A stretch of 64,000 nucleotides of DNA, taken from assembly GCF_030384885.1 (NCBI RefSeq), contig NZ_CP128613.1; one strand, given 5' to 3'. A program made the translations under genes and the position numbers. Under the pieces are notes generated by a model. That model had not been told where the DNA came from. It made no database searches and saw nothing but the letters and a program-made list of their open reading frames with translations. This document shows, piece after piece, positions 29,411 to 33,979 of the stretch. Origin of the DNA: Escherichia coli. GTDB taxonomy: Bacteria > Pseudomonadota > Gammaproteobacteria > Enterobacterales > Enterobacteriaceae. Position 1 is the stretch's first letter. Every line of letters begins with the position of its first letter.

Positions 29411-32400
29411 ATGAACAGGACCAGTCCCTATTATTTTCGCCGCTCAGTACTTTCCTTATTGATATCTGCTTTGATATATGCCCCACCAGGGATGGCAGCT
29501 TTTACTTCAACCGTTATTGGCGTGGTAAACGATGAGACTGTAGATGGCGTCCAAAGAGTGGATGAACGAGGTACAACAAATAACACTCATATTATCAACC
29601 ACGGTTATCAGGATGTTTATGGCGGGGTATCTAATGGAAGTATTATTGAATCTGGTGGATATCAAGATGTAGGAGGTCATTACAATTTTGTGGGGCAGGC
29701 TAATAATACAACCATTAACGGGGGCAGACAGACAATTCATGACGGGGGTATTTCCACAGGTACGATAATCGAGAGTGGCAATCAGGACGTTTATACGGGT
29801 GGTATCAGCAATGGAACGACAATTAAGGGGGGTAATTCACACATAAGTGGGGGGACTGCGAATGGAACAATCATTGATGGTGGCAGCCAACGAGTAACAA
29901 CTCAGGGGCATGTCGACAGTACAACAATAAATAAGTCTGGCTCTCAGGACATCACGCAAGGAAGTCTGGCAACGAACACAACCATAAATGGTGGTCGACA
30001 GTATGTTGAACAGAGCACAGTAGAAACAACCACCATTAAAAATGGCGGTGAGCAAAGAGTATATGAAAACCATGCGCTGGACACGACGATTGAAGGTGGA
30101 ACTCAGTCTTTGAATAATAAGTCAACGGCAAAATATACTCAGATCTATTCTGGAGGTACTCAAATTGTTGATTACACCAGCACCTCGGATGTTATTGAAA
30201 TTTATTCCGGTGGCGTGCTTGATGTTAGTGGTGGTACGGCAACAAATGTTACCCAGCACGATGGTGCAATTTTAAAAACAAACACTAACGGTACGACGGT
30301 GAGCGGTACGAATAGTGAAGGGGCATTCTCTATTCACAATAACGTGGCAGACAATGTGTTGCTGGAAAACGGTGGTCATTTAGACGTATATGGTTCGGCA
30401 AACAAGACAATTATTAAAGATAACGGAACAATGTCAGTTTTAGCGAATGCTAAAGCTGATGCGACCCGAATAGATAATGGCGGCGTTATGGATGTTGCCG
30501 GAAACGCGACAAATACCATAATTAATGGTGGCACACAGAATATAAATAATCATGGTATTGCCACGGGAACCAATATCAACAGCGGAACACAAAATATCAA
30601 GAGCGGCGGGAAAGCTGACACGACAAATATCTCCTCCGGGAGCCGGCAGGTTGTTGAGAAAGATGGTACGGCAACTGGCAGCAATATTAGTGCCGGAGGC
30701 TCGCTGATTGTCTATACCGGTGGTATCGCACATGGGGTTAACCAGGAGACGGGTAGTGCTTTAGTTGCCAACACGGGCGCAGGGACTGATATTGAAGGAT
30801 ACAACAAGCTCTCTCACTTCACTATTACCGGAGGGGAGGCTAATTATGTTGTGCTGGAAAATACCGGCGAACTGACGGTAGTGGCTAAAACCACGGCGAA
30901 AAATACTACCGTTGATGCTGGCGGTAAGCTGATTGTCCAGAAGGAGGCTAAAACAGATAGCACCAGACTTAATAATGGTGGCGTTCTGGAGGTTCAGGAC
31001 GGTGGTGAGGCTAAGCATGTTGAGCAACAATCCGGCGGCGCATTAATTGCTTCCACGACTTCCGGAACACTTATCGAAGGAACTAACAGTTATGGTGATG
31101 CTTTCTACATCAGGAATTCAGAAGCTAAAAATGTAGTGCTGGAAAACGCTGGCTCATTAACAGTCGTTACTGGTTCCCGGGCAGTTGATACGATTATTAA
31201 TGCCAACGGCAAAATGGATGTTTATGGAAAAGATGTTGGCACTGTACTCAATAGTGCGGGCACCCAAACAATATATGCCAGTGCCACTTCTGATAAAGCA
31301 AATATCAAAGGTGGCAAGCAAACGGTATATGGTTTAGCCACTGAGGCAAATATCGAAAGTGGTGAACAAATTGTTGATGGTGGGTCAACAGATAAAACGC
31401 ACCTCAAAGGCGGCACGCAAACCGTTCAGAATTATGGTAAGGCGATCAATACCGATATCGTCTCTGGCCTACAACAAATTATGGCAAACGGGACAACGGA
31501 AGGTTCCATTATTAATGGCGGTTCACAGGTAGTTAATGAGGGCGGTCTGGCTGAAAACTCGGTACTTAATGACGGCGGCACACTCGATGTGCGGGAGAAA
31601 GGCAGCGCTACGGGGATACAGCAGAGTAGCCAGGGCGCGCTGGTGGCAACCACCAGGGCGACGCGGGTCACAGGGACACGCGCTGATGGCGTCGCGTTCA
31701 GCATCGAGCAGGATGCGGCGAACAATATCCTGCTGGCAAATGGCGGCGTGTTAACCGTGGAGTCAGACACCACTTCCGCCAAAACACAGGTCAATGCGGG
31801 CGGACGGGAGATCGTCAAAACAAAAGCCACTGCGACTGGCACGATGCTTACCGGCGGTGAACAAATCGTCGAGGGTGTGGCGAATGAGACAACGATTAAC
31901 GACGGCGGAATACAAACAGTTTCGGCTAACGGTGAGGCAGTAAAAACAACGATTAATGAAGGCGGTACGCTGACAGTCAACGATAATGGCAAAGCGACAG
32001 ATATCATCCAGAACAGCGGTGCCGCTCTCCAGACGAGCACGGCTAACGGTATTGAAATCAGCGGTACTCACCAGTACGGCACCTTTTCCATTGCCGGAAA
32101 TTTAGCGACCAATGCGTTGCTGGAAAATGGCGGTAATTTATTGGTATTAGCAGGTACCGAAGCTCGCGATTCCACGGTTGGCAACGGTGGGGCAATGCAA
32201 AACCTGGGTCAGGACTTCGCCACAAAGGTTAATTCCGGTGGGCAATATACCCTTGGTCGGTCAAAAGATGAGTTTCAGGCTCTGGCCCGGGCAGAAGATC
32301 TACAGGTCGCTGGCGGGACGGCAATCGTCTACGCAGGTACGCTGGCGGATGCATCGGTCAGTGGCGCGACAGGAAGCCTGTCGTTAATGACGCCACGGGA

Positions 32401-33979
32401 TAATGTTACGCCAGTTAAACTTGAAGGGGTGGTCCGGATTACCGATAGCGCGACATTAACTATCGGAAATGGCGTCGATACGACGCTTGCCGACCTGACG
32501 GCTGCCAGCCGGGGCAGTGTCTGGCTTAACAGCAATAATTCCTGTGCAGGCACCAGCAACTGCGAATATAGAGTAAACAGTTTGCTCCTCAACGACGGTG
32601 ATGTTTATTTATCAGCACAAACAGCAGCGCCTGCCACAACTAACGGTATCTACAATACGCTGACCACCAGTGAACTTTCCGGCAGCGGTAATTTCTACCT
32701 GCATACCAACGTTGCAGGCTCCCGGGGCGATCAACTGGTCGTCAACAACAACGCCACTGGCAATTTTAAAATCTTTGTTCAGGATACCGGCGTCAGCCCT
32801 CAGTCTGACGACGCGATGACGCTGGTGAAAACAGGGGGAGGGGATGCTTCGTTTACGCTGGGTAATACCGGCGGTTTCGTTGATCTTGGGACCTATGAGT
32901 ATGTCCTGAAAAGCGACGGCAACAGCAACTGGAACCTGACCAATGATGTCAAACCCAACCCGGATCCCAACCCAAATCCGAAACCGGATCCAAAACCAGA
33001 CCCAAAACCGGATCCGAAACCAGACCCGACTCCCGATCCAACGCCGACACCCGTCCCGGAGAAACGCATCACGCCTTCTACGGCAGCCGTACTCAATATG
33101 GCAGCAACATTACCGTTGGTCTTTGATGCTGAGCTAAACAGTATTCGCGAGCGGTTGAACATAATGAAAGCGAGTCCACACAACAATAATGTCTGGGGGA
33201 CGACGTATAACACCCGTAATAATGTCACCACCGATGCGGGTGCCGGGTTTGAGCAGACGCTGACCGGAATGACGGTGGGGATCGATAGCCGTAATGATAT
33301 TCCTGAGGGGATTGCGACGCTGGGCGCTTTTATGGGTTATTCCCATTCACATATCGGTTTTGATCGTGGAGGACATGGCAGTGTGGGCAGTTATTCTCTG
33401 GGGGGCTATGTCAGCTGGGAACATGAAAGTGGTTTCTATCTGGACGGTATCGTGAAGCTGAACCGCTTTGAAAGTAACGTAGCCGGTAAAATGAGCAGCG
33501 GTGGAGCCGCCAACGGCAGTTATCGCAGCAACGGGCTGGGTGGTCATCTTGAAACCGGGATGCGATTTACCGATGGTAACTGGAACCTGACGCCGTATGC
33601 ATCGTTAACGGGGTTCACCGCTGATAACCCCGAATATCATTTATCCAATGGTATGGAATCGAAATCAGTCGATACCCGCAGTATATATCGTGAACTGGGC
33701 GCAACGCTGAGTTACAACATGCGTCTGGGGAACGGCATGGAAGTTGAGCCGTGGCTGAAGGCGGCTGTGCGCAAAGAATTTGTCGATGATAACCGGGTGA
33801 AAGTGAATAATGACGGTAATTTTGTCAATGATTTGTCGGGCAGACGTGGAATATACCAGGCAGGTATTAAAGCCTCATTCAGCAGTTCGTTAAGCGGGCA
33901 TCTCGGGGTAGGGTATAGCAATGGTGCTGGTTTGGAATCCCCGTGGAACGCGGTGGCTGGTGTGAACTGGTCGTTCTGA
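29411..33979 (+). CDS. ypjA: Large AIDA-I/Ag43-type autotransporter adhesin (ypjA-like)
   Basis: Extended signal peptide (MNRTSPYYFRRSVLSLLISALIYAPPGMA), approx. 19-residue repeats (GGxQxV...G.A..T.I..GG), Pro-rich PNPDP/KPDP linker, C-terminal beta-barrel ending ...AVAGVNWSF. Start at ATG 29411 (AGAGGA RBS); ORF track begins upstream at 29324. Confidence 0.85.
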   Translation: MNRTSPYYFRRSVLSLLISALIYAPPGMAAFTSTVIGVVNDETVDGVQRVDERGTTNNTHIINHGYQDVYGGVSNGSIIESGGYQDVGGHYNFVGQANNTTINGGRQTIHDGGISTGTIIESGNQDVYTGGISNGTTIKGGNSHISGGTANGTIIDGGSQRVTTQGHVDSTTINKSGSQDITQGSLATNTTINGGRQYVEQSTVETTTIKNGGEQRVYENHALDTTIEGGTQSLNNKSTAKYTQIYSGGTQIVDYTSTSDVIEIYSGGVLDVSGGTATNVTQHDGAILKTNTNGTTVSGTNSEGAFSIHNNVADNVLLENGGHLDVYGSANKTIIKDNGTMSVLANAKADATRIDNGGVMDVAGNATNTIINGGTQNINNHGIATGTNINSGTQNIKSGGKADTTNISSGSRQVVEKDGTATGSNISAGGSLIVYTGGIAHGVNQETGSALVANTGAGTDIEGYNKLSHFTITGGEANYVVLENTGELTVVAKTTAKNTTVDAGGKLIVQKEAKTDSTRLNNGGVLEVQDGGEAKHVEQQSGGALIASTTSGTLIEGTNSYGDAFYIRNSEAKNVVLENAGSLTVVTGSRAVDTIINANGKMDVYGKDVGTVLNSAGTQTIYASATSDKANIKGGKQTVYGLATEANIESGEQIVDGGSTDKTHLKGGTQTVQNYGKAINTDIVSGLQQIMANGTTEGSIINGGSQVVNEGGLAENSVLNDGGTLDVREKGSATGIQQSSQGALVATTRATRVTGTRADGVAFSIEQDAANNILLANGGVLTVESDTTSAKTQVNAGGREIVKTKATATGTMLTGGEQIVEGVANETTINDGGIQTVSANGEAVKTTINEGGTLTVNDNGKATDIIQNSGAALQTSTANGIEISGTHQYGTFSIAGNLATNALLENGGNLLVLAGTEARDSTVGNGGAMQNLGQDFATKVNSGGQYTLGRSKDEFQALARAEDLQVAGGTAIVYAGTLADASVSGATGSLSLMTPRDNVTPVKLEGVVRITDSATLTIGNGVDTTLADLTAASRGSVWLNSNNSCAGTSNCEYRVNSLLLNDGDVYLSAQTAAPATTNGIYNTLTTSELSGSGNFYLHTNVAGSRGDQLVVNNNATGNFKIFVQDTGVSPQSDDAMTLVKTGGGDASFTLGNTGGFVDLGTYEYVLKSDGNSNWNLTNDVKPNPDPNPNPKPDPKPDPKPDPKPDPTPDPTPTPVPEKRITPSTAAVLNMAATLPLVFDAELNSIRERLNIMKASPHNNNVWGTTYNTRNNVTTDAGAGFEQTLTGMTVGIDSRNDIPEGIATLGAFMGYSHSHIGFDRGGHGSVGSYSLGGYVSWEHESGFYLDGIVKLNRFESNVAGKMSSGGAANGSYRSNGLGGHLETGMRFTDGNWNLTPYASLTGFTADNPEYHLSNGMESKSVDTRSIYRELGATLSYNMRLGNGMEVEPWLKAAVRKEFVDDNRVKVNNDGNFVNDLSGRRGIYQAGIKASFSSSLSGHLGVGYSNGAGLESPWNAVAGVNWSF
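32951..33057 (+). repeat. Tandem Pro-rich repeat (KPDP/PNPDP) within autotransporter linker
   Basis: DNA repeats of ccNgatccNaaNcc units encoding KPNPDPNPNPKPDPKPDPKPDPKPDPTPDPTPTPVP. Confidence 0.8.

Follow-up and report, generated by a model that had tools for sequence, protein, structure and literature searches.

An intact ypjA (ehaD) autotransporter gene of Escherichia coli with diverged passenger repeats and a length-polymorphic proline-rich linker

The open reading frame at 29411–33979 (+ strand) of the window analysed here (64 000 nt of the E. coli contig NZ_CP128613.1, assembly GCF_030384885.1) is almost certainly an intact allele of ypjA (also named ehaD), a chromosomal gene for a classical (type Va), AIDA-I-type autotransporter. 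The adhesin is not new, since it corresponds to a named and already described E. coli gene. Within the species, ypjA evolves by point substitution, by slippage of 6-nt units in its linker and by outright decay; the number of its β-helix repeats does not change.

The frame comprises 4569 nt and 1522 codons for amino acids, its sole stop being the terminal one, and a GAGG (29398–29401) lies 9 nt ahead of the ATG. Over 4701 nt the DNA is 100% identical to the ypjA annotated in strain 2013C-4282 (NZ_CP027579.1), and the RefSeq CDS of that identical allele has the same start and end. This exact allele is present in only 1 of 5426 complete genomes, the runner-up being 98.4% identical in DNA; database matches named 'YpjA/EhaD' run to thousands. 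The protein is 94.6% identical to K-12 YpjA (b2647), full length and collinear, and 94.8% identical, again over its full length, to the allele of strain 350, which has a linker of O157-type length and was used for the comparison with EHEC EhaD. Gaps are confined to two sites in these comparisons, and such full-length identity to both proteins assigns the gene to the YpjA/EhaD orthologue group. The type Va, AIDA-I-type assignment follows from the presence of a Sec signal peptide, a β-helical passenger with its junction domain, and a C-terminal barrel with an aromatic end. The initial annotation had described a complete AIDA/Ag43-type autotransporter gene and had proposed a search for the β-domain and a careful translation as checks; the domain searches gave matches and translation revealed neither a frameshift nor an internal stop. 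No evidence against the identification as ypjA/ehaD was found.

The N-terminal ∼29 residues (MNRTSPYYFRRSVLSLLISALIYAPPGMA / AF; 29411–29497, + strand) were read from the sequence as a conventional Sec signal peptide, with basic residues R3, R10 and R11, a hydrophobic core at residues 13–24 and G-M-A before the predicted cleavage site. This reading agrees with the 29 amino acids listed for the signal peptide of K-12 YpjA (PMC13101318). The leader had initially been taken for an extended signal peptide, which was not borne out: no match to the ESPR (PF13018; a ∼50-aa leader) was obtained at E ≤ 10 on the N-terminus, even when the sequence searched was extended in frame upstream to TTG 29324, and the positive control, Ag43, was detected at E = 5.9e-16.

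The passenger β-helix region (aa 46–983; 29546–32359, + strand) was delimited by domain, periodicity and HMM searches. Autocorrelation peaks at lags 18, 19, 35–37 and 53–55 indicate a periodicity of 18–19 residues, and ∼39 units of 16–19 aa were detected with an iterated HMM, in agreement with the many ∼19-residue repeats first noticed in the translation. The Pfam AIDA model (PF16168) matches 10 stretches (436.8 bits, E = 5.5e-134) and TIGR04415 matches 13 (221 bits); the solved passengers of Ag43, of the AIDA-I family and of TibA match at E = 1e-26 to 1e-31. A full-length β-helix has been predicted for YpjA, which was placed in the biofilm-forming group of autotransporters, in a work that lists no published structure for its passenger (PMC9289746). 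At the DNA level, neither Tandem Repeats Finder (TRF) nor an exact-repeat search revealed long repeats in the passenger, TRF reporting the linker array alone. The longest exact internal direct repeat in the gene is 14 nt, the families of internal repeats are 60–89% identical and span at most 47 nt, and the β-helix modules share 30–40% protein identity. The β-helix repeats are too diverged to recombine, and the earlier description of recombination-prone internal repeats has to be abandoned. The '1.5-kb repeat' that accompanied it does not exist either; the figure fits the length of the protein, ∼1.5 thousand residues.

Downstream of the repeats lies a pertactin-like junction (autochaperone) domain (aa 1055–1177; 32573–32941, + strand; PF03212, E = 5.2e-45, 152.7 bits), which matches residues 414–534 of pertactin (1DAB); an autochaperone domain is listed for EhaD in PMC5767081. 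It is followed by the Pro-rich linker (aa 1181–1216; 32951–33058, + strand), of sequence KPNPDPNPNPKPDPKPDPKPDPKPDPTPDPTPTPVP, which is encoded, as had been proposed, by tandem DNA repeats: a degenerate 12/24-nt array at 32951–33055, the only tandem array in the gene. The remainder (33059–33976, + strand) is the translocator, made of an α-helical segment and a 12-strand-type β-barrel. The predicted barrel was recovered with PF03797 (aa 1261–1500, E = 1.5e-45, 156.4 bits for a cut-off of 26) and TIGR01414 (E = 2.6e-97, 326.6 bits for a cut-off of 16), and its relatives with a solved structure include BrkA (3QQ2) and Vag8 (7AKV). The last residue, read from the translation, is an aromatic one (Phe, in ...NWSF).

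The gene lies in the conserved order ileY - ypjC/ypjB - pin remnant - ypjA - ssrA att site. The tRNA with anticodon CAT (ileY; 26188–26263, + strand, from annotation and a tRNA call) is the upstream landmark, and a fragment of a pinH-type recombinase gene (28796–28960, + strand) was located by gap-free alignment with the RefSeq annotation of a near-identical strain; its K-12 counterpart is the pinH pseudogene, at the equivalent location. On the other side, 167 nt downstream of ypjA, begins an att relic (34146–34186), a 41-nt copy of the ssrA 3' end that marks the far edge of an ssrA-integrated element and is identical at 40 of 41 positions to 48505–48545, within the gene called as ssrA (tmRNA; 48498–48860, − strand), the target of integration. 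Homology with strain 2013C-4282 and with K-12 ends at 34161–34162, and the K-12 counterpart of the relic is annotated psaA, at the end of CP4-57. The element found here between ypjA and ssrA is a 14.4-kb P2-like prophage remnant, and in strains without the island the end of ypjA is ∼160 nt from ssrA. Thus, the statement that ypjA sits between two prophage att relics holds for its downstream side; upstream there are the recombinase fragment and ileY, and no att duplication of ileY was found upstream of ypjA. A 20-nt pair at 26149 and 29061 (18/20 identical) was rejected as an att candidate, since it is situated upstream of the tRNA and its similarity is estimated to be at chance level. ypjA is part of a conserved backbone, and mobile elements that insert at ssrA come to lie between these two genes. 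PADLOC gave no match for the neighbouring thyX-like and dCTP-deaminase-like genes.

Among seven aligned intact alleles (94–98% protein identity), the only length differences are an indel of 2 aa at aa 326 and the number of dipeptides in the linker, which is the only other length-polymorphic tract and varies in 6-nt steps (−12, 0, +6 and +12 nt). For example, the 1522 aa found here compare with 1526 in K-12 and 1528 in strain 350, the differences residing in the 2-aa gap (aa 326) and in a linker shorter by 2–6 residues. In ∼45 further full-length passenger matches that were sampled, the length offset was 0 or +6 nt, except in two cases of ±5 nt. The copy-number variation that had been anticipated therefore exists for the linker and is not seen for the β-helix repeats. 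Could such variation serve a purpose? The array of 6-nt PN/PD/PK units, its −12 to +12 nt range among alleles and a 22-residue difference in the linker of a paralogue at the minE locus would fit a slippage-prone, tunable spacer, the length of which would govern the distance between adhesin helix and outer membrane; combined with exchange between the two paralogous loci, whose 5', 3' and upstream sequences are in common, this would afford E. coli some modest variation in adhesin length. We hold this reading to be improbable; if true, it would be a kind of length variation not described for YpjA.

The main differences between strains concern the presence, decay or loss of ypjA. At least 80% of the gene is present in 45% of complete E. 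coli genomes; the other genomes have a deleted or IS1-cut gene or none at all. The large differences are forms of decay: IS1 truncations, loss, and a 1.3-kb deletion reaching into the barrel, which fuses passenger to barrel across ∼9–11 nt of microhomology, leaving the gene destroyed. We considered this deletion as a repeat-mediated in-frame change and rejected it, because its right end lies in the barrel, its junction is one of microhomology and RefSeq annotates the resulting genes as pseudogenes. Matches spanning just gene positions 4225–4569 were likewise discarded as ypjA remnants, since in the strain examined the match sits at the ymgJ-minE locus. An intact copy has some slight value as a strain marker, since most of the gene is found in ∼45% of complete genomes.

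By analogy with its family, the ordinary ∼29-residue signal peptide would deliver the protein to the periplasm through the Sec pathway, the C-terminal domain would enter the outer membrane as a β-barrel and the passenger (∼1150 residues) would be exported C-terminus first. The pertactin-like junction would then nucleate the folding of a long right-handed β-helix, of probably ∼40–50 rungs of 18–19 residues, and the PN/PD/PK tract would act as a spacer between helix and barrel. The surface-exposed helix, if expressed, may promote adhesion and biofilm formation, effects already published for YpjA/EhaD: YfaL, YpjA and YcgV take part in initial adhesion and in the formation of biofilms (PMC3796261), and in STEC biofilm formation has been linked to ehaD (PMC4076661). 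ypjA/ehaD is a reviewed adhesin gene; adhesin typing tools cover it, and it has served as a scaffold for surface display.

Whether the gene plays any present role in this strain can be questioned. A search of the 500 nt upstream of ypjA gave no sigma-70-like promoter on the + strand, and the DNA on that side is rich in AT (GC 0.40–0.42), so the gene may be silent under ordinary conditions; moreover, it is damaged or absent in ∼55% of complete genomes. An intact but transcriptionally silent relic heading to decay is nevertheless unlikely, since a 4.6-kb frame still open in ∼45% of genomes, with alleles 94–98% identical in protein, argues for continued selection, and the gain in adhesion and biofilm formation upon expression is on record in the literature.

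A contingency adhesin whose passenger length is often altered by unequal recombination between β-helix repeats is a much poorer explanation, and one that we consider extremely unlikely. It could draw on the repetitive nature of the passenger at the protein level and on the ymgJ-minE paralogue, which misses two in-frame blocks of ∼0.6 kb; one of the junctions is in register at an LNNGG/LNDGG motif, between modules 597 nt apart, so modules have been gained or lost over a long time scale. Against it stand the shortness and divergence of the DNA repeats, the constant number of units in the seven aligned alleles and the ∼45 sampled passengers, and the gene-destroying nature of the one deletion described above. 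It is also very unlikely that YpjA is a self-associating autotransporter of the Ag43/AIDA-I kind proper, with an ESPR and the behaviour of those proteins. The equivalog models for Ag43/Cah (NF033177) and AIDA-I (NF033176) do match in part, as do the solved Ag43 structures, and reviews place YpjA nearby, one of them as a possible member of the self-associating autotransporters (PMC9289746). However, the two scores (341.9 and 278.6 bits, respectively) are far under the cut-off of 1200 that applies to each model, the ESPR is absent in a search with a working positive control, and no heptosyltransferase gene of the Aah/TibC type adjoins ypjA at this locus. Candidate target repeats for O-heptosylation of the AIDA-I/TibA type are present in the passenger, namely the 13 TIGR04415 stretches.

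Three known systems come closest to this gene. K-12 ypjA (b2647) and ehaD of EHEC O157:H7 are the same gene: their domains follow one another in the same order, and they too lie between the pinH remnant and the att copy of ssrA. Ag43 (Flu), AIDA-I and TibA have in common with YpjA the AIDA-type 19-residue repeats, the pertactin-like junction, the Pro-rich linker and the barrel, but the YpjA passenger is much longer, and YpjA has neither the ESPR leader nor an adjacent heptosyltransferase. The ypjA-like autotransporter at the ymgJ-minE locus, which also bears the name YpjA/EhaD in RefSeq, shares with ypjA its 5' end, its 3' end and ∼380 nt of upstream DNA (84–96% identity). It is intact in some strains, and the strain examined keeps just a 345-nt remnant of it. 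Its product is 1132–1154 aa long, without the two passenger blocks of ∼0.6 kb found in ypjA, and its linker consists purely of (PN)n over a long stretch, in which two strains differ by 22 residues.

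The autotransporter gene at 29411-33979 (+) is the known ypjA (ehaD) and was correctly recognised as such an adhesin gene in the initial annotation, although several of the embellishments added there do not hold. The ORF list places it in a single long frame, 29324-33979 (+), that opens at a TTG further upstream. Starting at the ATG at 29411, which is preceded by GAGG (29398-29401, 9 nt apart) and is also the start of the identical allele in RefSeq, the gene measures 4569 nt, a multiple of three, with a lone terminal TGA, and codes for 1522 amino acids. Therefore, the check for an internal stop or frameshift was negative and the gene is complete, as claimed. 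When it was compared by megablast with 5426 complete E. coli genomes, the best match was strain 2013C-4282 (100% over 4701 nt; annotated 'ypjA: adhesin-like autotransporter YpjA/EhaD'), followed by thousands of matches at 94–98% identity. The K-12 protein (b2647) is 94.6% identical, and its gene lies in the same neighbourhood.

The predicted C-terminal barrel was confirmed by Pfam (Autotransporter beta-domain, aa 1261-1500, E 1.5e-45) and NCBIfam (TIGR01414, E 2.6e-97); it is preceded by a Pertactin domain (aa 1055-1177, E 5.2e-45) and by AIDA repeats in 10 stretches (E 5.5e-134), with TIGR04415 repeats reported 13 times. The expected 'dozens' of approximately 19-residue repeats were also found: the BLOSUM autocorrelation of the passenger sequence shows peaks at a lag of 18 or 19 residues and at multiples of these, and iterating an HMM seeded with a single 19-residue unit identified 39 units (aa 46-983). 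The leader was described as an extended signal peptide. However, the protein begins with an ordinary leader of ~29 residues (MNRTSPYYFRRSVLSLLISALIYAPPGMA/AF), and even with the upstream in-frame extension included it gave no match to the Pfam ESPR family at E ≤ 10, whereas the Ag43 N-terminus used as positive control scored E 5.9e-16. A 2026 toolkit paper likewise gives signal peptides of 29 aa for YpjA and 52 aa for Ag43 (PMC13101318).

The internal repeats were expected to be recombination-prone, which is not borne out at the DNA level. The longest exact direct repeat within the gene is 14 nt, the repeat families in the passenger DNA share 60–89% identity over spans of at most 47 nt, and the ~200-aa modules are only 30–40% identical as proteins. 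Because the exact matches are so short, the beta-helix repeats would be poor substrates for homologous recombination. No 1.5-kb repeat exists in the gene; the '1.5' fits the protein length in residues. The only array reported by Tandem Repeats Finder lies in the Pro-rich linker between passenger and barrel (32953-33041, period 12/24).

Comparison among strains gave a similar picture. In a protein alignment of seven intact alleles (1518–1528 aa), length differs at two places only: a 2-aa indel at aa 326, and the linker, whose varying number of PK/PD/PN dipeptides makes it between 4 residues shorter and 6 residues longer than the copy in the window. In a spread sample of 60 matches the linker region differs by 0, +6 or +12 nt, so that its copy number does vary as anticipated. 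In a separate spread sample for the 3390-nt passenger, the ~45 full-length matches differ by 0 or +6 nt; two passenger matches, off by ±5 nt, probably carry a frameshift. Neither these matches nor the seven alleles show gain or loss of a beta-helix unit, contrary to the predicted copy-number variation. Large differences between strains are instead due to decay: a deletion of 1.3 kb fuses the passenger to the middle of the barrel (gene positions ~2780 and ~4085) at a CAGCGGTGG-type microhomology (the products are annotated as pseudogenes in RefSeq), IS1-bounded truncations occur near positions 1236-1259, and many genomes have no ypjA. Of the 5426 genomes, 2439 (45%) carry at least 80% of the gene, which agrees with the 44.8% carriage that a PIRT-Seq study gives for an ORF nested within ypjA among 227,873 genomes (PMC12350097). 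An antisense ORF at 30761-31018 (−) is identical at 82 of 85 positions to 'CDS87 (in-ypjA)', an 85-aa candidate nested gene described in K-12 by the same study (PMC12350097); ypjA, a repeat-rich gene, frequently has long antisense ORFs (e.g. 202 aa at 31432-32040).

Some strains carry an intact ypjA-like gene of 1132–1154 aa in the ymgJ-minE locus (2501-5965 in locus L013 and 1866-5264 in locus L014, each in its own coordinates). It aligns to ypjA positions 1-359, 997-1589 and 2154-4569, so two blocks of ~0.6 kb, both in frame, are missing from its passenger. At one junction, modules that lie 597 nt apart are joined in register at a CTTAAYRAYGGYGGC (LNNGG/LNDGG) motif which they share. The length of the paralogue linker, an extended run of pure (PN)n, differs between two strains by 22 residues, and ~380 nt of upstream DNA are 89.5% identical between the two loci. 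A match to the last 345 nt of ypjA alone, checked in one strain, maps to this other locus, adjoining minE, where it is the sole remainder of the paralogue. The missing blocks and the linker difference show that the gene family has changed its module number in the past and that the linker is truly slippage-prone; they do not make the passenger of ypjA vary between strains of today.

The gene was also placed between two prophage att relics, which is half right. Downstream, a 41-nt copy of the ssrA 3′ end (34146-34186; 40/41 identical to 48505-48545) begins 167 nt past the ypjA stop, and its K-12 counterpart is annotated psaA, at the end of CP4-57; upstream, an att duplication was looked for and not found, hence only one relic stands. 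The window is 99.956% identical, gap-free, to strain 2013C-4282 over 9300-34162 and then diverges, and K-12 homology also ends there, to return at ssrA (48498-48860, −). Between relic and ssrA (34146-48545) lies a 14.36-kb P2-like prophage remnant with an integrase, a CI-type repressor, a Dam-type methylase, a gpA replication protein and a portal fragment. In island-free strains the end of ypjA is ~160 nt from ssrA, so the gene belongs to the backbone and is not prophage cargo. Strain 2013C-4282 has a different, CP4-57-like island at this site, so the ssrA site has turned over recently.

Within the remnant, a ThyX-type thymidylate synthase gene and an adjoining dCTP-deaminase/dUTPase-like gene with a long C-terminal tail (34347-35902, −; PF02511 E 2.6e-48, PF22769 E 5.9e-15; GC 0.32–0.41) lie between a P2-type integrase (35929-36942) and the att copy. 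They had no match in PADLOC v2 and may be nucleotide-pool or anti-phage cargo. A 778-aa AAA_13 ATPase (45039-47375, +; GC 0.30) matching candidate defence family PDC-S06 (E 1.5e-266) adjoins the portal-gene fragment (47425-47823). Upstream of ypjA are tRNA ileY (anticodon CAT, called Met by ARAGORN), a recombinase fragment and an intact 478-aa ORF (27020-28456, +) of the YpjCB family, in which DUF5507 and DUF5508 are fused, whereas in K-12 they are on separate genes, ypjC and ypjB; a YpjCB sequence of the same length is flagged as frameshifted by RefSeq in strain 2013C-4282. A short ORF immediately upstream of ypjA (29226-29346, +) is annotated here as a frameshifted 'ATPase' fragment and in other strains as a hypothetical protein of 39 aa; the paralogue at the minE locus also has it upstream.

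What the sequence itself shows is the order of the domains and an uninterrupted frame; the likely mechanism is modelled on the family. YpjA would be exported by Sec, its barrel inserted in the outer membrane and its passenger secreted C-to-N, with folding nucleated by the pertactin-like autochaperone (an EhaD autochaperone domain has been catalogued; PMC5767081); the long beta-helix would then be held at the cell surface, with the Pro-rich tract as spacer. Expression of YpjA/EhaD is linked to initial adhesion and biofilm formation in published work, as summarised in reviews (PMC3796261; PMC4076661; PMC12547504). The coding strand upstream of ypjA yielded no sigma-70-like site and the flank is AT-rich, which would fit a poorly expressed gene. 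PMC9289746 groups ypjA with the biofilm-forming autotransporters and gives neither a solved structure nor a mechanism for it. The protein scores far under the cut-offs of the NCBIfam equivalog models for Ag43 and AIDA-I; its relatives among solved structures are the passengers of Ag43, the AIDA-I family and TibA, then pertactin, and the barrels of BrkA and Vag8.
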